A stretch of DNA of 53,456 nt from IMG/VR virus record IMGVR_UViG_3300017659_000001; one strand, written 5' to 3'. This DNA is from a virus. The position numbers and the translations under genes were made by a program. The notes below the pieces were generated by a model, which saw only the letters and a program-made list of their open reading frames with translations, made no database searches and was not told the DNA's origin. Of this stretch, positions 1 to 53,456 are shown piece after piece; the first letter of the stretch is position 1; every line of letters begins with the position of its first letter.

Positions 1-123
1 CCGGTCCACCGGATACCTCGTGCCCGGCAATACCTACCTCGCTGAGATCATCTATCCCGGCAACCGGATCGTCGTCGACTACGGCCAGCGCGAAGACCTC
101 GTCCTCCTCGCCGCGTTCAACGC
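1..123. repeat. Exact 123-bp copy of 53334..53456 (terminal overlap; unit genome 53,333 bp)
   Basis: Read directly: bases 1-123 (ccggtccaccggatacctcg...gcgttcaacgc) are identical to the last 123 bases of the window. Confidence 0.97.
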
Positions 124-802
124 CGACGGCCGCGAGCTCCGCCTCGACTTCGTGGCCGACGACTGGGTCGACATCGGCACCGTCGTCCGCACGTGGCCCG
201 CCCTCCCGCTCGCCGAACTGCTGAAGCTCACCGAGACCAACGCCCGCCCCGACGGCCAGCCCACGACCGGCATGCACGCCGAGGGCTACGTCATCCGCTA
301 CGCCAACGGGCTGAGGGCGAAGGCAAAGCTCGCCGAGTACGTCCGCCTCCACAAAGTCCTCACCGGGATCACCGAGCGGGACATCTGGCGCTACCTCGGC
401 ATCCAGAAGTTCGCTGGGCAGCCGCCGAAGCTCGTCGCGAAAGCCCTCGGCTGCCCCGTCGCCGAAATCGTCGCGCTCACCGACGGCGGCCGCGGCCCCC
501 TCGACGCCCTCCTGGAGCAAGTCCCCGACGAGTTCGACACGTGGGTGCGCGGCGTCGCCGCCCGCCTGGAAGACCAGGCGGCGCAGCAGGCCGACCGCGC
601 CATCGACGAGTACGCGGCGATCGCCCACCTCGCCGGAGACCGCGGCGAGTTCGCCCGCGCCGCCCAGCACATCGCCGACCCCGGGGTGCGCGCGGCGATG
701 TTCCTCGCCCTCGACGGCCGGCCGACGGGCCTGCACCTGTGGCGGTCGATCCGGCCGGAGGCGTCGACGCCGTTCGTCGCGGACGACGAGACGGGCGAGT
801 GA
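1..802 (+). CDS. RNA ligase (Rnl1/T4 RnlA-like), C-terminal part; same ORF as 52921..53456 across the circular junction (about 404 aa in total)
   Basis: The frame of ORF 20..802 stays open back to base 2 and is in phase with 52921.. through the overlap. Motifs EGYVIRY and KAKLAEY lie downstream of the KVDGS lysine motif. Confidence 0.8.
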   Translation, partial: RSTGYLVPGNTYLAEIIYPGNRIVVDYGQREDLVLLAAFNADGRELRLDFVADDWVDIGTVVRTWPALPLAELLKLTETNARPDGQPTTGMHAEGYVIRYANGLRAKAKLAEYVRLHKVLTGITERDIWRYLGIQKFAGQPPKLVAKALGCPVAEIVALTDGGRGPLDALLEQVPDEFDTWVRGVAARLEDQAAQQADRAIDEYAAIAHLAGDRGEFARAAQHIADPGVRAAMFLALDGRPTGLHLWRSIRPEASTPFVADDETGE

Positions 803-4103: not shown

Positions 4104-4695
4104 CCTGCACGACTGGATCACCCAACAAATCGACCGCCGCGAAGGCCTCGCCAAGCGCGCCGCTCACTACGGCCGACCCGACTGGCCACAACCCGCCACC
4201 GCCGTCGTCGACACCGGTGAAGACTGGCCCATCACCACCGAAGCCGGACCGATCGCCGAACACATCAGCGACAACGACCCGGCCGCCGTGCTCCGCCGGT
4301 GCGCCGCCGACCGGAAGATCCTTACCATCCACGCCCCCGCCGGCGGCAACTACGACCCGTACGCCTGCGACGGATGCGGCATCGACAGCGAGTACGGCCA
4401 CGAAGTCCGGCACACCAACGACTGCGAAACCCTTCAGGCCCTGGCCGAGGGGTACGGGCTCACCGAGGAGCAGCGCGCGGAGTTGGACCGGCCCGAGCCA
4501 GAGCCGCGTCAACGCCCGCTCGGCGGGGGCTTCATCACCGACGCGCTCGCCGAGGCCATGTACGGGAAGCTGATCGCCACGTTCGTCAACGCTCGCCCGC
4601 TGGAGCCGACACCCGTCGAGAAGGCGATCACCATCCTCGGCCCGGAGTTGAAGAAGATCAGCGGGTACGTGCCCATCGCCAAGGAGCAGCCGTAG
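4096..4695 (+). CDS. DUF6221-like protein (family recalled from memory)
   Basis: ORF track. LHDWITQQIDRREGLAKRAA...DPAAVLRRCAADRKIL...CDGCG...CETLQALAEGYG parallels the gene at 4850..5311. Confidence 0.7.
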   Translation: MPDLHDWITQQIDRREGLAKRAAHYGRPDWPQPATAVVDTGEDWPITTEAGPIAEHISDNDPAAVLRRCAADRKILTIHAPAGGNYDPYACDGCGIDSEYGHEVRHTNDCETLQALAEGYGLTEEQRAELDRPEPEPRQRPLGGGFITDALAEAMYGKLIATFVNARPLEPTPVEKAITILGPELKKISGYVPIAKEQP

Positions 4696-37916: not shown

Positions 37917-39143
37917 TCAACGCCCCTCTGACCTGCCCGGATTCCGGGATCCTTCCGCCCCGCCAGAAAGATTCCCCGCCGCAGCCCACGCCGCATCGAG
38001 CACCGACCGCGTCTTCTCCTCCGCCTCAGCGAACAGATGGGCGTAGATCCGCAGCGTCGTCAGGATGTCCTTGTGCCCGAGCCGCTTCTGCACGACCTTC
38101 GGGTTCTCGCCGCCCGAGATGAGCACCGACGCGTAGTGGTGACGCAACTCGTGCCAGTGCCGCGCGGCCACACCGGCCTTCCGGCAGACGCCCTTGAGCG
38201 CCGCGTCCATCGTCGACTCGGACACCGACCGCCCGTCCGGCATCGTGAAGACCAGCCCGGCCCACTCGCCGCCCGCCGGAGGCGGATACTTCGCCAGATG
38301 CGCGGCCAGGAGATCGACGGCCCGCTGCGTCAACGGCAGCGTGCGACGGCCGGCGCCGGTCTTCAGCTTGTCGAGGTACTTCCCCCGGCCGGGCTCGTAC
38401 ACAAGCTGCTCGTGGACATGCAGCATCTTGCGCAGAAAATCCACCTGTCCCACCCTGAGCCCGCGCAGCTCACCCGACCGCAGGCCCGTCAGCGCGGTCA
38501 GCTCGATCATCGCCGCCCACCGCTCGTGGTACGCGTGCGCGATGAGCTCGGTCACCTCGGCGATGTCCGGCGGGTGGACGGTGGACTGTGTCTGTGCGGG
38601 CGCACGGATCCCGGCGAACGGCGAGATGGGGATGACCCGGTCGACGACAGCCAGCTTGAACACCGACCGCACGTACCGGGCCACGAGGTTGGGGGTGCCG
38701 CCACCGAGCCCGTACTTGCTCGACAGCAGCTTCTGCCAGGCGCCGGCCTCGCTCGGCTTGATCGACCGCATCTGCCGTGTGCCCCACTCGGGGATGAGGT
38801 AGCGGTTCAGGTAGCCGCGGTACTCGCGCTCGGTCCGGCCGATGACGCCCTGTGCGGGTAGCCACGTCTTCAGGGCGAACGCTTCGACGGTGACCTTTCC
38901 GGCTTCGGGGTCCAGCCAGGATCCGTCGAGCTTGGAGCCTTCCTGCTTCGTGATCTCCTTCTCGGCCTCGGCCTGCGTCCGCCACAGCGACGTGCGTTCC
39001 TTGCCGTCGGGGCCGTCGTACCGGGCCTGCCACCGCTTGCCCTGCCCGTGGACCGACGAGGCGACCTTGCCCTTGTGCTCCCCGCACTCGGGGTCGCCAG
39101 CGTTCGGCCTGGTCTTGTGCCAGCGGTCAGCTACGTAGCCCAT
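37917..39143 (-). CDS. int: Tyrosine integrase
   Basis: ORF track, 408 aa. Catalytic box HELRHHYASVLI...LGHKDILTTLRIYAHL. Confidence 0.95.
   Translation of the reverse strand: MGYVADRWHKTRPNAGDPECGEHKGKVASSVHGQGKRWQARYDGPDGKERTSLWRTQAEAEKEITKQEGSKLDGSWLDPEAGKVTVEAFALKTWLPAQGVIGRTEREYRGYLNRYLIPEWGTRQMRSIKPSEAGAWQKLLSSKYGLGGGTPNLVARYVRSVFKLAVVDRVIPISPFAGIRAPAQTQSTVHPPDIAEVTELIAHAYHERWAAMIELTALTGLRSGELRGLRVGQVDFLRKMLHVHEQLVYEPGRGKYLDKLKTGAGRRTLPLTQRAVDLLAAHLAKYPPPAGGEWAGLVFTMPDGRSVSESTMDAALKGVCRKAGVAARHWHELRHHYASVLISGGENPKVVQKRLGHKDILTTLRIYAHLFAEAEEKTRSVLDAAWAAAGNLSGGAEGSRNPGRSEGR
37939..37960. repeat. 22-bp direct repeat, copy 2, inside the 3' end of int
   Basis: Identical to 37750..37771. 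Confidence 0.9.
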
Positions 39144-46591: not shown

Positions 46592-47172
46592 CCACTCTGT
46601 TCGACCTCACCCCGGCCACCCCGGCCGCCCCCGCGGCGGCCGGGCCCCGGCCCCTGGTAGTCGGCGCCGATCTGTCCCTGCGATCCACAGGCCTCGGCTC
46701 GGCCGACTGGACCGACTACGTCCGCCCCAAGAAACTGACCGGCCACCCCCGCCTCGCCTTCCTCGTCCAAGAGATCGGCTCGTTCCTCAAAACCGCCGAC
46801 CTCGTCGTCCTCGAAGGCCCCTCCTTCGGACACGCCGGGCAGGGCGGACACGAGGAACTGGCGTGGCTCCGCGGGGCGGTGCAGCACTGGCTGTGGCGCC
46901 GCGAGATCCCGTACGCCATCGTCCCGCCGTCCACGCTGAAGCTGTACTTCGCCGGGCACGGCCACGCCTCGAAGGCCCTGATGCAGAAGGCTGCGGAGCA
47001 GGTCTTCGGCCGGACCTTCGAGGGCCCGGCCGCCGGGGATGAGTGCGACGGGTTCGCGCTCGCCGCCGCGGGCTACGAGTGGCTCGACATGCCGCTGGCT
47101 GTGGTGCCGGAGCGGCAGCGGGAGGCGCTGGCTGGCTGCCAGTGGCCGGAGCGCGAGGCGGTGACCCGCTGA
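46588..47172 (+). CDS. RuvC-like Holliday junction resolvase
   Basis: GTG 46588 in ORF 46537..47172. VVGADLSLRSTG, VVLEGPSF, DECDGFALA. Confidence 0.85.
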   Translation: MTTLFDLTPATPAAPAAAGPRPLVVGADLSLRSTGLGSADWTDYVRPKKLTGHPRLAFLVQEIGSFLKTADLVVLEGPSFGHAGQGGHEELAWLRGAVQHWLWRREIPYAIVPPSTLKLYFAGHGHASKALMQKAAEQVFGRTFEGPAAGDECDGFALAAAGYEWLDMPLAVVPERQREALAGCQWPEREAVTR

Positions 47173-48047
47173 TGCCCCGACACCCCAACGCCACCCGCGA
47201 ACAGATCGAAGCCGCCCTCCGCGCAGGCAAGCCCACCCTCACCATCGCCACCGAACTCCGCGTCGACCGCGGACGCGTCCGCCGCATCCGCAACGACCTG
47301 AACCTCCCCGCGTTCGTTCCCGCCGAACAGACCCGCACCCCTCAACAGAAGTGGGCCACATACGCCCGCACCCTCAACGACGGCCACATGGAATGGACCG
47401 GCGAACGCGTCGGCACCGCCGGCACCCCGGTCATGCGCTACAAGGACCAGTGCCTCAGCCCCACCGCGCTCGCCTTCGAACTGCGGCACGGACGCCCCCC
47501 GCAGGGCTACACGATCGCCGACTGCGGGCTCAAGCACTGCATCGCACCCGACCACGTCAACGACGAACCCGGACGCCTCCAAGCCCGCCGCGCACTCCAC
47601 AACGGCGGTCCGCGGAAGCCCTGCTCGTACGGCCACGACCAGAACGAGCACGGCAAGTTCGACCCCACCGGCCGGGCGTACTGCGGCCTGTGCAAGGCCC
47701 TCCACAAACAGGAGCGCCGCGATCCGCTGGCTCCCCGGCGGGAGCGCACCCGCCCGCGGCCCACCTCGTTGGAGGACGTCTTCCACGCCCACATCGAGGA
47801 GGTCGGCGCCGGACATGTCCGATGGGCCGGACCGGTCATGCACCGTACGCCGGCCGTGAAGTTCGACGGCCGGACGGAGTCTGCGTTCCGGGTCGCGTTC
47901 CGCCTGTGTCGCGGGCGTGACCCGGAGGGGCTGGCGATGCCCACTTGCGGTGTGCCGTTGTGCGTGGCGGGCGGGCATCTGGAGGACCGGCCGATGCGGC
48001 AGTTGTCGAAGCTGCTGTTCGAGTCGATCTTCGGGGAGGCGTCGTGA
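47172..48047 (+). CDS. HTH protein carrying two degenerate HNH-like modules and a central CxxxxH...CxxC finger (291 aa)
   Basis: ATG 47172 in ORF 47043..48047. Module 1 runs GHMEWTG...ADCGLKHCIAPDHV. Module 2 runs GHVRWAG...PTCGVPLCVAGGHL. Confidence 0.8.
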   Translation: MPRHPNATREQIEAALRAGKPTLTIATELRVDRGRVRRIRNDLNLPAFVPAEQTRTPQQKWATYARTLNDGHMEWTGERVGTAGTPVMRYKDQCLSPTALAFELRHGRPPQGYTIADCGLKHCIAPDHVNDEPGRLQARRALHNGGPRKPCSYGHDQNEHGKFDPTGRAYCGLCKALHKQERRDPLAPRRERTRPRPTSLEDVFHAHIEEVGAGHVRWAGPVMHRTPAVKFDGRTESAFRVAFRLCRGRDPEGLAMPTCGVPLCVAGGHLEDRPMRQLSKLLFESIFGEAS

Positions 48048-48604
48048 GCGCCTACACCGGGCAGGTACCCGACACCGAACCCGCAGGTCAGTGGACCAAG
48101 CAAGGCCCCTGCCGCGACGACCCCGACCGCATGTACCCCGGCACCCTCGCAGCCGAGATCGAACGCGCAAAGACCGTCTGCCGCGGCTGCCCCGTCATGG
48201 AGCAGTGCCTGCAATGGGCGCTGGAGACCCGCGAGCCGTACGGCGTGTGGGGTGGCACGTCGGAGGCGGACCGGCGCGCCTACTTCCGGCGGCGCGGCTA
48301 CCACCTGAAGAACCTCGACAGCGACTTCGAGGAGGGCGCTGGCCCGGACCGCACTCTTCAGTCCCTGTGGGCTGAACGCACGCTCGCTGGCGGCGGGCAC
48401 ATGGCCTGGACGGGGTCGGTCCCGGTGAGTTTCCAGGGCCGCGTGTATACGCCGGCCCGGATCGGGTTCGAGCTGGATCGTGGCCGGGTTCCGGTGGGGA
48501 TGGTGCGGCCGACGTGCGGGGTGGGTGGGTGTGTGTTGCCTGCGCATTTGATGGATCAGGTGGAGCGGTCGCGGCGCGACGCGGCGAAGGCTCTCGCGTC
48601 GTGA
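48044..48604 (+). CDS. whiB: WhiB-family Fe-S protein fused to a third degenerate HNH-like module (186 aa)
   Basis: GTG 48044 in ORF 47945..48604. GPC...CRGCPVMEQC...GVWGG, then GHMAWTG...PTCGVGGCVLPAHL. Confidence 0.85.
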   Translation: MSAYTGQVPDTEPAGQWTKQGPCRDDPDRMYPGTLAAEIERAKTVCRGCPVMEQCLQWALETREPYGVWGGTSEADRRAYFRRRGYHLKNLDSDFEEGAGPDRTLQSLWAERTLAGGGHMAWTGSVPVSFQGRVYTPARIGFELDRGRVPVGMVRPTCGVGGCVLPAHLMDQVERSRRDAAKALAS

Positions 48605-48883: not shown

Positions 48884-49312
48884 ATGCCCCAGCCCGACAA
48901 CACCACGACCTACCTGATCACCCCCACAGTCCTCAACCTGTTCGTCCGCGCCTTGGTCAACGAAGTCGACTACGACATCCACAAGGGCTACGAGTGCGGC
49001 GAGGAAGACGGCGAGGACCACTACCCCGAGCTCGTCATCGAGGCCGCGGAGATCCTCGGCACGATCACCGCAGGGCAGGGCGCCCCGGAGATCCCCGTCG
49101 AGGCTGCCGCGCACGTCCTGTTCCAGGAGCGGCTTGGTGGCTGGCCGCCGAGCACGTTCGCCACGAAGTTGCTGAACGCCTGGACGTCGGCTGACACGGG
49201 GAACGCCTCGCGTCTCGCTGTCGCCTTCCCCGAGTACGCCGCCGCCATCGCTCTCGTGAGGAGCGGGCAGCAGGGCGTGCAGCAGTTGCGCGCCATCGCA
49301 GGCGACTCCTGA
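48884..49312 (+). CDS. Hypothetical protein (142 aa)
   Basis: ATG 48884 after AAGGAG, in ORF 48650..49312. Confidence 0.7.
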   Translation: MPQPDNTTTYLITPTVLNLFVRALVNEVDYDIHKGYECGEEDGEDHYPELVIEAAEILGTITAGQGAPEIPVEAAAHVLFQERLGGWPPSTFATKLLNAWTSADTGNASRLAVAFPEYAAAIALVRSGQQGVQQLRAIAGDS

Positions 49313-49365
49313 CCACCTGGCCGGCGGCCGGACCCCCGGCGCATGCCCCGCGCCGCTGCCGCCAC

Positions 49366-49403
49366 CCGGGCCCGCCCGACCACCCCCCGGCGGGCGGGCC
49401 CGG
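49366..49403 (+). terminator. GC hairpin (13-bp perfect stem)
   Basis: ccgggcccgcccg...cgggcgggcccgg, read directly. Confidence 0.6.
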
Positions 49404-49429
49404 ACCCCCATCACGAGAGGAAGACACCC

Positions 49430-49645
49430 ATGACGAAGCCGCGGAAAAAGCAGTCCTCGCCCCTCAGGGGCGCTGAACGAGCAGAGATCGCACGGGAGTT
49501 GGCGGAGCTGTACGCCCTCGGCTCCACGATGCGCAGCCTCGCTGTGCGGACTGGCCGTGCGTACGGGACGGTGCGGACGCTGCTGCTGGAGGCGGGGGTC
49601 ACGCTGCGGGCGCGCGGCGGCCGCATCCGGAAGGCAGGCGCCTGA
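49430..49645 (+). CDS. Small HTH protein (71 aa)
   Basis: ATG 49430 in ORF 49343..49645. STMRSLAVRTGRAYGTVRTLLLEAG. Confidence 0.7.
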   Translation: MTKPRKKQSSPLRGAERAEIARELAELYALGSTMRSLAVRTGRAYGTVRTLLLEAGVTLRARGGRIRKAGA

Positions 49646-49896
49646 TGGCCCGCTCGATCGGCATGGCCGCCGACGCCACCGTGTTCCGCGCCGTCATCAC
49701 CAAGCAGCTCCGCAACGGCGAGACCGTCACCAACTACGAGGGCCCGTACGGGGCGATCGGCGCGGCCCGCGCCCGCGTCAGCTTCTGGACGAACTACCTC
49801 GCCGTCCGCGACGAGGACACCCAGGAGCCGACCGGCGAGAGCCGCGCGTCCGGCTACGTCGAACGCGGCACCGTCACCTGGGAGCGAGCCGGATGA
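49645..49896 (+). CDS. Hypothetical protein (83 aa)
   Basis: ORF track. TGATG and ATGA overlaps with both neighbours. Confidence 0.6.
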   Translation: MARSIGMAADATVFRAVITKQLRNGETVTNYEGPYGAIGAARARVSFWTNYLAVRDEDTQEPTGESRASGYVERGTVTWERAG

Positions 49897-50321
49897 GGTA
49901 CTTCCACGGCGGCATCCCTGACCTGAAGCCCGGCGACCTCATCACCCCGCACGCGCCGAACGTCGTCGACGGCTGCACCATCTGCGCGGCCAAGGCCGCC
50001 GGGCAACAGCCCGTCATCGAAGGCCTCGGCGTCGTCGACCCGCTCACCGAACGGGCCGACCGCGTGTACGTCACCAGCGACCGCGAGTACGCCCGCTTCT
50101 ACGCCTCGAAGTACCCGCGCGGAGACCTCTACGTCGTCGAGCCCGTCGGCGCCCTGGAGCCGTCCACCGAGGACCGGTTCGAGTCGTGGACCGCGCCGGC
50201 CGTGCGCGTGCTGACGGTCTACGACCGGTACGTCCAGCTCACCGTCAAGCAGCGGCGCGCGCTGCTGCGGCGGTGGACGGCCGCCGACATGGCGGCGGCC
50301 CTGGCCGTGCCAGCGATCTAG
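49893..50321 (+). CDS. Arr-like (rifampin ADP-ribosyltransferase family) protein (142 aa)
   Basis: ATG 49893 in ORF 49557..50321. YFHGG..DLKPGDLI, RVYVTS, DLYVVEPVGALEPSTED and SWTAPAVRVLTV parallel Arr motifs as I remember them. Confidence 0.6.
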   Translation: MRYFHGGIPDLKPGDLITPHAPNVVDGCTICAAKAAGQQPVIEGLGVVDPLTERADRVYVTSDREYARFYASKYPRGDLYVVEPVGALEPSTEDRFESWTAPAVRVLTVYDRYVQLTVKQRRALLRRWTAADMAAALAVPAI

Positions 50322-50347
50322 GCCAAACGGTTCCGCAACATCACGAA

Positions 50348-50372
50348 GCCCCGCACCAACACGGTGCGGGGC
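50348..50372. terminator. Bidirectional hairpin (10-bp perfect stem, 5-nt loop)
   Basis: gccccgcacc-aacac-ggtgcggggc, read directly. Confidence 0.65.
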
Positions 50373-50397
50373 CCGGGGCAGAGAGGAGGAGTAGGTG

Positions 50398-50610
50398 TCA
50401 GGACTTCGGGCCGGGCGCGATCCGGGCCACCCACTCACGGGTGAAGCCCGTCAGCTTCGCCATGTGCGACGGCCCCTTGCGGCGCTCGTTCCGGCCCTCG
50501 ACGAGCAGCGCGCGCACCTCTTCGTCCGCGCGGTCGAAGGCGTCTTTGGCCCGCGCGCGCTTCTTCGCGGCTGCCGAGAGCCGCTGGTCGAACTCGTCCA
50601 TGTCGCTCAT
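50398..50610 (-). CDS. Small HTH-like protein (70 aa)
   Basis: ATG 50610 in ORF 50398..50688. SHMAKLTGFTREWVARI. Confidence 0.6.
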   Translation of the reverse strand: MSDMDEFDQRLSAAAKKRARAKDAFDRADEEVRALLVEGRNERRKGPSHMAKLTGFTREWVARIAPGPKS

Positions 50611-50638
50611 GTTGCCATGCGCGGTCACAGTTCCGCTA

Positions 50639-50648
50639 CGCGATCGCG
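50639..50648. promoter_or_regulatory. 10-bp perfect palindrome CGCGATCGCG in a divergent promoter region
   Basis: Read directly. Confidence 0.3.
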
Positions 50649-50770
50649 GTATACAGTCGCGACCTGCGTGCGCGAACGGTATTCTCATCTCAAGGGTGAT
50701 CGAAAGCCACCGTGAACTGGGGGTCTATTCGACATGCCCTGATCAGCACGACCCCTGAGAGCGAGAACGA

Positions 50771-51652
50771 ATGCCGAGCCGGTTCGAGTACGAGAGAGCA
50801 GTCCGCAGCAGCGACCTCCCATCGCTCTCACGATTGCTCGCGCTCACCGTCGCCACCTGGGCAGACGTACGGACCGGCATCATCCCCGACCGGCTCACGC
50901 CTTCACTGACGACGCTGGAGTCCGCCACGGGGATGGCGCGCGCCTCGGTCCGCAAGCACCTGGACACGCTGGAGGCGGGCGGGTGGCTGAAGCGTGACCG
51001 TCCGTCGGTGGCTGCGGCCCGGGCGGAGAAGGCCCGCACCAAGTACACGATCAAGGTTCCGCGCGGCGCAGCAGTGCCCGAATCGGACGGGATTGAGCTA
51101 GGGCAGGACGCAGCCGCCACTAGGGCAGGAAATGCCCTAGACGCCCAGGAGCTAGGGCAGGAGCTGCCCCTGCCTAGGGCAGGAGACGCCCTAGCACTAG
51201 GGCAGGAGATGACCACGACTAGGGCAGGAGCTGCCCTCAGTAGTTCCAGTAGTTCCAGTAGTTCCGTTGAGTACCAACCACACGCGCCCGCCGCCGTAGC
51301 CCCCCAGTCGGGACGAGGAGAGATCCAACCCCTCATCGACGCCATGGGCGCCCGCGGCATGAACATCTCCTGGCACTTCCAAGCACCCGAGTGGATCGAA
51401 CTCCGCGACGCCATCCGCCGCGCCGGAGTCCCCGCCCTCGTCGACCACGCCGAACGCGCATGGGCCGCCGCAAAGAAGACGCCCTACAGCGCCCGCTACT
51501 TCCTCACCGGCTGGACCGGACTCCAGACGCCCACCACCTTCACCGGGCCCCGCCCCGTCGCACCCGCCAGCCCCGCCCTCGCCCGCCGCAACGCGGCCCG
51601 CGGCGTCCTCGACCAACTCACCGAACAACTCCGCGCAGGAGGCAACCCGTGA
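50771..51652 (+). CDS. Replication initiator/replisome organiser (winged HTH) containing the iteron array
   Basis: ORF track. TLESATGMARASVRKHLDTLEAGGWL. The origin repeats lie inside the gene. It is followed by a helicase-loader-like gene. Confidence 0.75.
   Translation: MPSRFEYERAVRSSDLPSLSRLLALTVATWADVRTGIIPDRLTPSLTTLESATGMARASVRKHLDTLEAGGWLKRDRPSVAAARAEKARTKYTIKVPRGAAVPESDGIELGQDAAATRAGNALDAQELGQELPLPRAGDALALGQEMTTTRAGAALSSSSSSSSSVEYQPHAPAAVAPQSGRGEIQPLIDAMGARGMNISWHFQAPEWIELRDAIRRAGVPALVDHAERAWAAAKKTPYSARYFLTGWTGLQTPTTFTGPRPVAPASPALARRNAARGVLDQLTEQLRAGGNP
51098..51229 (+). repeat. Iteron array: six direct copies of CTAGGGCAGGA plus inverted partial copies
   Basis: Copies start at 51098, 51120, 51152, 51174, 51197 and 51219. 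Inverted TGCCCTAG lies at 51133..51140 and GCCCTAG at 51188..51194. Confidence 0.85.
51239..51265 (+). repeat. Tandem 9-mer AGTAGTTCC x3, relatively AT-rich, adjacent to the iterons (possible unwinding element)
   Basis: Read directly. It encodes poly-Ser. Confidence 0.8.
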
Positions 51653-52920: not shown

Positions 52921-53456
52921 GTGACAAGCCTCGACACCCTCATCCCACCCACCGACCTCGACGCCGCCATCCAGGCCGGCCACATCACACGCCGCCCACA
53001 CCCCACCCTGCCGCTGTCGATCTACACGTACACGCGGGCCGCCCAGTACGAGCGCGCCTGGACTCCCGCCACCCTCCGCTGCCGGGGCCTGATCGCCGAC
53101 GACAAGACCGGCGAGATCATCGGATGGCCGTTCCCGAAGTTCTTCAACGTCGGCGAGCACGCCCACGGCAACGAGTACGCGCCGCCGCTCCCGGAGGGCG
53201 AGCCGTTCGAGGTGTACGACAAGGTCGACGGATCCCTCGGCATCGTCTTCCACTACGGCGGCCGGTGGCGTGCCGCGTCGAAGGGCTCCTTCACCAGCGA
53301 GCAAGCCGCGTGGGCGCAGCAGTGGCTCGACAGCCGGTCCACCGGATACCTCGTGCCCGGCAATACCTACCTCGCTGAGATCATCTATCCCGGCAACCGG
53401 ATCGTCGTCGACTACGGCCAGCGCGAAGACCTCGTCCTCCTCGCCGCGTTCAACGC
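52921..53456 (+). CDS. RNA ligase (Rnl1/T4 RnlA-like), N-terminal part; continues at base 1 via the overlap
   Basis: Hand-translated from GTG 52921: ...LRCRGLIADDKTGEIIGWPFPKFFNVGEH...FEVYDKVDGSLGIVF.... There is no stop before the window end. It is absent from the ORF track because it is unterminated. Confidence 0.8.
   Translation, partial: MTSLDTLIPPTDLDAAIQAGHITRRPHPTLPLSIYTYTRAAQYERAWTPATLRCRGLIADDKTGEIIGWPFPKFFNVGEHAHGNEYAPPLPEGEPFEVYDKVDGSLGIVFHYGGRWRAASKGSFTSEQAAWAQQWLDSRSTGYLVPGNTYLAEIIYPGNRIVVDYGQREDLVLLAAFN
53334..53456. repeat. Exact 123-bp copy of 1..123
   Basis: Read directly. Confidence 0.97.

Follow-up and report, generated by a model that had tools for sequence, protein, structure and literature searches.

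A predicted Arr-clade ADP-ribosyltransferase in a hairpin-bracketed gene cassette of a putative temperate Streptomyces phage

Introduction

Arr enzymes, a clade of the ADP-ribosyltransferase (ART) superfamily, use NAD+ to ADP-ribosylate rifamycins at the C23-OH, which makes the bearer resistant; they are clinically relevant, for example in Mycobacterium abscessus. Elsewhere in the superfamily, Alt, ModA, and ModB of phage T4 modify proteins and DarT modifies DNA. The Arr-1 and Arr-X groups share approximately 50% identity and both inactivate rifamycins (PMC13246000), which are so far the only known small-molecule targets of ARTs (10.1101/2025.02.20.639278). Iyer et al. (2022; PMC9503650) already noted that phages, including those recovered here, carry Arr-family ARTs, and proposed that these enzymes protect the host from rifamycin-like antibiotics or act on other diffusible compounds of immunity. 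We analyzed a stretch of viral DNA of 53,456 nucleotides (IMG/VR record IMGVR_UViG_3300017659_000001), hereafter called the window, and in it a three-gene cassette at positions 49366 to 50372. The last gene of the cassette encodes a protein of 142 amino acids (aa) that an initial annotation had aligned by eye with Arr.

We propose that the 142-aa protein is a catalytically competent mono-ADP-ribosyltransferase of a phage and prophage subfamily that would have branched from the minimal ART fold of Arr. The likeliest acceptor would be a diffusible small molecule, either a rifamycin- or ansamycin-type inhibitor of RNA polymerase or another metabolite of the host or a competitor, and its modification would detoxify a compound that otherwise halts phage development or harms the lysogen. 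This is the best explanation overall, yet it is held at slightly under even confidence because its claims are layered and the weakest of them limits the whole. The family itself is not new, since SEA-PHAGES annotation and the article by Iyer et al. already cover members of it; the window gene, from a Streptomyces phage and prophage lineage, is a further member of this biochemically uncharacterized family.

Homology and fold

A direct phmmer search of the protein against PDB sequences returned no match, and Arr was detected by profile and fold methods only. The single Pfam match was Arr-ms (E 0.0024, 18.4 bits), which was also matched by 20 of 35 relatives, with a best E of 1.2e-4 that was still sub-threshold. 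A profile built from the 35-sequence family ranked Arr-ms (2HW2) first among PDB sequences, not significantly (E 0.24). An hhalign comparison of the family with an alignment of Arr (Arr-2 and Arr-ms, whose sequences the PDB search supplied, together with Arr homologues) gave a probability of 95.7% (E 9.5e-9) over 105 columns, reaching into the C-terminal helix. The alignment made by eye was reproduced by hhalign, with YFHGG paired with YLHGT (His19 of Arr), RVYVT with HIYIT (Tyr49), and LYVVEPVG with IFIVEPEG.

The AlphaFold2 model of the 142-aa protein had a mean predicted local distance difference test score (pLDDT) of 91.6 and a predicted template modeling score (pTM) of 0.81. When this model was compared with the PDB by Foldseek, the top three structures were all Arr: 2hw2 (Arr-ms, E 6.4e-5), 9iaf (Arr, 8.2e-5), and 9iba (Arr-2, 1.3e-2), each with a TM score of 0.50. 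These three were the only significant fold matches in the PDB, followed weakly by cholera and heat-labile (LT) toxins (E about 0.5). Arr homology, posed as a check by the initial annotation, is thus significant both by profile and by structure, and we are highly confident that the protein has an Arr-clade ART fold and a real, distant homology to Arr.

Like Arr (Arr-ms 2HW2 and Arr-2 9IBA; PF12120, NF033144; Arr-1/Arr-X), the phage protein has a minimal ART fold of approximately 140 aa with a C-terminal helix, is encoded by a stand-alone gene, and shows the aligned His and Tyr, the VEPxG strand, and the G-D turn. In contrast, it is only 17-20% identical to Arr, while Arr-ms and Arr-2 are 58% identical to each other in our alignment, and its gene is phage-borne and lies in an early-gene region.

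The protein belongs to phrog_17296, a family labeled 'unknown function' (E 4.5e-38), with residues 2-131 covering positions 4-125 of the 125-position profile. Its 160 close homologues were nearly all unannotated and came from Streptomyces genomes and metagenomes, and an exhaustive profile search yielded at least 656 clusters at 50% identity. Phage members of phrog_17296 include Gordonia EMsquaredA gp68, Arthrobacter BruhMoment gp58, Streptomyces TurkishDelight gp70, and genes of Microbacterium cluster EC phages and of Sinorhizobium PBC5, with 41-55% identity over 73-89% of the protein (54.7% over 89% for EMsquaredA gp68). SEA-PHAGES annotators name the Gordonia, Arthrobacter, Microbacterium, and Streptomyces TurkishDelight homologues 'ADP-ribosyltransferase'; in the literature searched, no experimental study of the family was found. 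The window enzyme resembles these phage members in its early-region placement and, as in EMsquaredA, has a helix-turn-helix (HTH) gene two genes 5' of it. It differs from them in that its closest relatives are unannotated prophage and metagenome proteins and its immediate neighbors are not the same. One homologue, from Streptomyces halobius (P0028, WP_248866631.1), carries the UniRef name 'Nucleotide modification associated domain-containing protein'; neither an Nmad nor any other Pfam match was reproduced for it.

Positions of the cassette features are given in Table 1.

Table 1. Features of the cassette and of the gene that faces it, with positions in the window
Feature	Positions	Strand	Description
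GC-rich hairpin	49366..49403	+	13+2 bp stem, 7-nt loop; putative U-less terminator or insulator
HTH_58 protein, 71 aa, pI 11.7	49430..49645	+	First cassette gene; Pfam PF19575
Conserved 83-aa protein	49645..49896	+	Overlaps both neighbors; no family assigned
Arr-clade mono-ADP-ribosyltransferase (phrog_17296), 142 aa, 16 kDa, pI 6.7	49893..50321	+	Predicted from profile, fold, and conservation
Residue features of the enzyme			Predicted active site His5, Tyr59, Glu93/Asp94; CxxC insert (Cys28, Cys31); C-terminal helix 118-138
Hairpin	50348..50372	both	10-bp stem between the enzyme gene (+) and 50398..50610 (-); putative bidirectional U-less terminator
70-aa gene	50398..50610	-	Convergent to the enzyme gene; no family match

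Predicted active site and the CxxC insert

In the hhalign alignment, His5 of the phage protein corresponds to His19 of Arr and Tyr59 to Tyr49. Conservation was assessed in 212 near-full-length relatives, of which 98% retained His5, 100% Gly6, 92% Tyr59, 94% Thr61, and 99% Tyr80; position 93 was acidic in 89% and Asp94 was present in 83%. Such conservation is what selection on an active H-Y-[ED] enzyme would be expected to leave, and we consider it likely that the 142-aa protein is catalytically active. By analogy with the family, NAD+ would be held by a conserved core consisting of His5-Gly6, Tyr59-x-Thr61, and Tyr80-x-x-Glu-Pro-x-Gly86, and release of nicotinamide would be promoted by the Glu93/Asp94 pair.

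The initial annotation had held that the His, Tyr, and acidic positions of Arr are all kept. The His, the Tyr, and an acidic pair are indeed conserved; however, the column of Arr Asp84 holds Ser91, and the conserved pair Glu93-Asp94 follows at a distance of three residues in an indel-rich loop. Equivalence of the acidic residues is plausible but unproven for this reason. The mismatch, together with scores under the family thresholds, would also fit a catalytically dead ART-fold protein used for binding, for example of NAD+ or ADP-ribose, or as a decoy. Conservation of the active site (92-100% for His5, Gly6, Tyr59, and Tyr80, with a Glu-Asp pair three residues from the Arr acid) makes a dead enzyme improbable.

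The extra Cys-containing segment described earlier is a true insertion of 24 residues relative to Arr. It carries Cys28-x-x-Cys31, and the CxxC motif was present in 82% of the 212 relatives. Zinc binding by the insert was considered; only these two Cys are conserved, a second conserved pair being absent, and two relatives gave weak rubredoxin-like Pfam matches. A gene of Mycobacterium phage prophiGD05-3 annotated as 'rubredoxin' (gene 32; locus L004, 3000..3224) corresponds to the N-terminal 60 or so residues of the ART family (VRYFHGGAPGLRPGD...DGCPTCEA) followed by a premature stop, and is probably a decayed ART that was mis-annotated through its CxxC motif.

Longer family members were also observed: one of 391 aa with a calcineurin-like phosphoesterase, one of 370 aa with a tandem ART that has no CxxC, and one of 352 aa in which the ART lies behind a RecT domain (P0137, P0142, and P0230). 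These fused members may be gene-calling artefacts caused by read-through.

Acceptor side and comparison with rifamycin-inactivating Arr

After release of nicotinamide, ADP-ribose would be passed to an acceptor in a cleft that appears to be rebuilt relative to Arr, with the CxxC insert, a different alpha-1 helix, and a shorter loop after the acidic residues. A small-molecule acceptor, of the rifamycin type or similar, is our first choice, although we put it somewhat below an even chance. It was ranked first because the characterized relatives act on rifamycins, because no partner or reversing enzyme is needed, and because the hosts are soil actinomycetes. The earlier prediction by Iyer et al. 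for the phage members and the moron-like make-up of the cassette, described below, are in line with it.

Several observations weigh against this proposal. The Pfam score of the protein lies below the gathering score of 25, and the sole NCBIfam match, rifampin_ARR, reached 15.4 bits against a cut-off of 130. By a hand count from the alignments, approximately 15 of 56 Arr-invariant positions are retained, all of them in the NAD+ core (H-G, G-D, Y-x-T, R-G, and V-E-P-x-G). The Arr loop Val32-His46, a D-loop analogue that forms part of the NAD+ pocket wall and touches acceptors as well (10.1101/2025.02.20.639278), gives way to the CxxC insert in the phage enzyme. The WGAE helix of Arr is absent, with REYARFYAS in its place, as is the DDPNxTxKKxPGNPTxSxR loop, the equivalent stretch being nine residues shorter. 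Distant family members occur in the obligately lytic Microbacterium cluster EC phages (PMC7302621), and the enzyme genes sit among early DNA-metabolism and regulator genes, the same placement that a host-takeover enzyme would show. The GC content of the cassette is no different from that of the remaining genome.

The rifamycin-associated element, which marks the arr and helR genes of actinomycetes (10.1101/2021.05.10.443476), also speaks against the proposal. This 19-bp inverted repeat, which stands upstream of those genes, was absent from the window, with up to 3 mismatches allowed, and from all 97 related loci. As a positive control, the element GGGGCTTGCGGCAAGGCCCC was recovered approximately 60 bp 5' of a canonical Mycolicibacterium arr. 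A string with 4 mismatches, GTGGCATGCGGCATCCCCC, was considered as a candidate element and rejected, being no inverted repeat and judged to be conserved coding sequence; other fuzzy matches were regarded as noise. In 14 related prophage loci the identical 19-mer GTGGCATGCGGCATCCCCC stands approximately 530 bp 5' of the ART gene (about 4440..4480).

Given the sub-cut-off scores, the approximately 15 of 56 retained positions, the replaced loop, and the absent element, the phage enzyme is not an Arr equivalog. Of the Arr-like identity first claimed for it, membership in the Arr clade stood up to hhalign and Foldseek; its scores fall below the Arr cut-offs, and rifamycin is no more than a candidate substrate.

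The same features allow a different acceptor to be considered, namely a macromolecule. The enzyme could be an early factor of host takeover or counter-defense whose target is DNA, RNA, or a protein of host or phage origin, for example RNA polymerase, a transcription factor, or a defense protein. This alternative was ranked a close second, and we regard it as a serious though still doubtful possibility, because the acceptor side is rebuilt, the early-gene context is shared by lytic and temperate phages, and no rifamycin-responsive element is present. Of Arr, the NAD+ core has been retained and every acceptor-side element exchanged for something else. The genes are neighbored in early regions by WhiB, methylase, RusA, RecT/exonuclease, and replication genes, a context that resembles that of T4 Mod/Alt. 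Domains like Acb2/Tad1 and Acb5 are encoded a few genes away in two prophages, family members are fused to a calcineurin-like phosphoesterase and to RecT, and Arr has been reported with protein substrates and with a role in the DNA-damage response. However, no characterized member of the Arr clade has a proven macromolecular target of known physiology. Prophage-borne ARTs that target macromolecules often need a partner or a reversing hydrolase, and none is conserved here. The pI of the enzyme is near neutral, and the fusions could be artefacts as noted above. Although DarT, Alt/Mod, and the cholera-type toxins share the ART superfamily fold, the phage enzyme had no significant match to them, nor to any PADLOC model; it lacks a DarG-like macrodomain partner and has H-Y-[ED] where they have R-S-E.

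A related proposition, that the subfamily kept the NAD+ core while the CxxC insert and the rebuilt cleft gave it a non-rifamycin acceptor, seems to us possible, with the balance leaning somewhat against it. Such an acceptor may be an antiphage or competitor metabolite, an immune signaling nucleotide, a host protein, or a nucleic acid. If true, the Arr clade would gain its first non-rifamycin function and phages a counter-measure of a new type. Either outcome for rifamycins would be of interest, as this is a large family, in phages and prophages of soil actinomycetes, that combines the catalytic core of Arr with a rebuilt acceptor site. If the family inactivates rifamycins, the phages are a mobile reservoir of resistance and could shield their own transcription from a blocker of host RNA polymerase; if it does not, the Arr fold has a second class of acceptor.

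Gene neighborhoods and the cassette

We propose that the enzyme acts alone and that the HTH_58 and 83-aa genes are co-transcribed, translationally coupled neighbors in a hairpin-insulated early-region cassette and not obligate partners. Neighborhoods were sampled from 31 genomic and 60 viral loci coding relatives of the enzyme, plus the annotated phage loci. Clustering of the neighbors returned only generic early-region genes (WhiB, C5-methylase, ParB-like, RusA, and replication initiator), and no adjacent gene was conserved across approximately 88 enzyme loci. Pfam, neighbor, and PADLOC scans found no macrodomain, antitoxin, or PADLOC family around the enzyme. The conserved adjacent antitoxin or ADP-ribosyl-hydrolase of ART toxin-antitoxin systems (DarTG, ParST, and similar) was likewise not encountered in these loci.

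Genes for Acb2_Tad1_hairpin and Acb5 (anti-CBASS/anti-Thoeris) domains were located within a few kb in prophages with an ART gene or an 83-aa gene (L010, 3891..4223; L009, 6619..7236; L104, 3746..5249). The early regions of these prophages may be anti-defense islands.

The coordinates in the initial annotation, for both hairpins and for three overlapping genes, were exact. The first two genes overlap by 1 nt (TGATG) and the last two by 4 nt (ATGA). GC content at third codon positions was 0.85, 0.95, and 0.96 for the three genes in order, values typical of real coding sequence in a genome of 69.6% GC.

The initial annotation had called the cassette terminator-bracketed. Strong, non-random stems do stand at both ends. 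The upstream hairpin (-37 kcal/mol, z = -3.93; none of 200 shuffles equally stable) lies 54 nt past the stop codon of the preceding gene, which also encodes 142 aa, and 27 nt ahead of the HTH start codon. The downstream hairpin had energies of -24.6 (+) and -25.7 (-) kcal/mol with z = -3.9 and -3.1. However, a scan for consensus promoters and terminators called no sites, and a T-run follows neither hairpin, nor is there one on either side of the downstream stem. 'Terminator' is therefore a reasonable inference only. U-less terminators are common among high-GC actinomycetes. An Rfam scan of 49000..51000 found no RNA family. In a prophage of S. cylindrosporus, a different hairpin, a perfect one of 14 bp, occupies the equivalent site 5' of the HTH_58 gene. 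Bracketed by hairpins, with its own HTH gene first and carried by what appears to be a temperate phage, the cassette resembles a moron-type fitness cassette.

The 71-aa product of the first gene, described at the outset as an HTH protein, is one: it matched Pfam HTH_58 with E 3.2e-17 and 62.6 bits (cut-off 23.8). Its gene is preceded by the Shine-Dalgarno-like GAGAGGAAG. An HTH_58 homologue was found less than 1 kb 5' of the enzyme in about 20 of the approximately 88 related loci, and HTH_58 genes were often present in two copies in related early regions. The HTH_58 gene is thus a recurrent neighbor of the enzyme and not an obligatory one.

The 83-aa protein had no match in Pfam, PHROG, NCBIfam, or PADLOC. 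Its 98 homologues were all 'hypothetical' and all from Streptomyces phages and prophages. The AlphaFold2 model (pLDDT 90.9) shows a strand-strand-helix unit followed by three strands, and Foldseek found nothing significant for it in the PDB; a likeness to phi29 p56, an inhibitor of uracil-DNA glycosylase, was disregarded because the matches were weak (E above 1). The model suggests a small conserved orphan fold.

The 83-aa protein had been proposed as a modulator or antidote of the enzyme, which would make the two genes a pair of ART toxin and antitoxin. The 4-nt overlap of the two genes would suit such a pair, as would the recurrence of the order HTH, 82 aa, enzyme in the S. cylindrosporus prophage. 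The distribution of the genes tells otherwise. The enzyme was missing from all 21 Streptomyces phage records in which a homologue of the 83-aa protein was present. Three prophages also have such a homologue, and the enzyme is not encoded in the surrounding 2.5 kb. Apart from the window's own copies, the enzyme and an 83-aa homologue were found together only in that one prophage lineage among the approximately 88 enzyme-bearing loci, and directly 5' of the enzyme Gordonia EMsquaredA and Arthrobacter BruhMoment carry unrelated genes. No match to PADLOC or to a toxin-antitoxin family was obtained. Because the two genes are distributed independently, the partner or antidote role was dismissed and a toxin-antidote pair is essentially excluded; the 83-aa gene is an independent small phage gene.

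Phage genome

The first 123 nt of the window (1..123) are identical to the last 123 nt (53334..53456), which marks the assembly as circular or terminally redundant, its unit being 53,333 bp long. It encodes a tyrosine integrase (37917..39143, minus strand), HTH_3 repressor-like proteins, and a Gp3-like recombination directionality factor, and because of these genes the source is predicted to be a temperate, Streptomyces-type phage. Among the deposited phage genomes searched, no close relative of the window was found; several soil metagenome contigs hold identical copies of the region.

On the 3' side of the cassette are the convergent 70-aa gene, a divergent low-GC intergenic stretch, a replication-initiator-like gene, an HNH gene, and a gene for an Rnl1-like RNA ligase. 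The ligase gene (PF09511; phrog_562) spans the assembly junction (52921..53456 plus 1..802), and the ligase is 404 aa long in contig ERZ27286444 k141_1337761. A functional link between the enzyme and the RNA ligase, along the lines of Tpt1-like RNA repair, was considered and rejected, as none of the other loci has an RNA ligase less than 5 kb away from the enzyme. Such a ligase is unusual for temperate Streptomyces phages, and its presence hints at a tRNA or RNA repair function directed against anticodon nucleases.

On the 5' side are a RuvC-like resolvase gene, two WhiB/HNH genes, and two unassigned genes. The adjacent genes 47172..48047 and 48044..48604 mix WhiB-like and HNH-endonuclease-like regions (Pfam Whib E 6e-21; phrog_826, phrog_472), an architecture that is unusual. 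In the interval 50398..50771, the 70-aa minus-strand gene is followed by the divergent intergenic region (GC 0.62) that precedes the replication-initiator-like gene (phrog_270/391), and this low-GC region may be a promoter or an origin.

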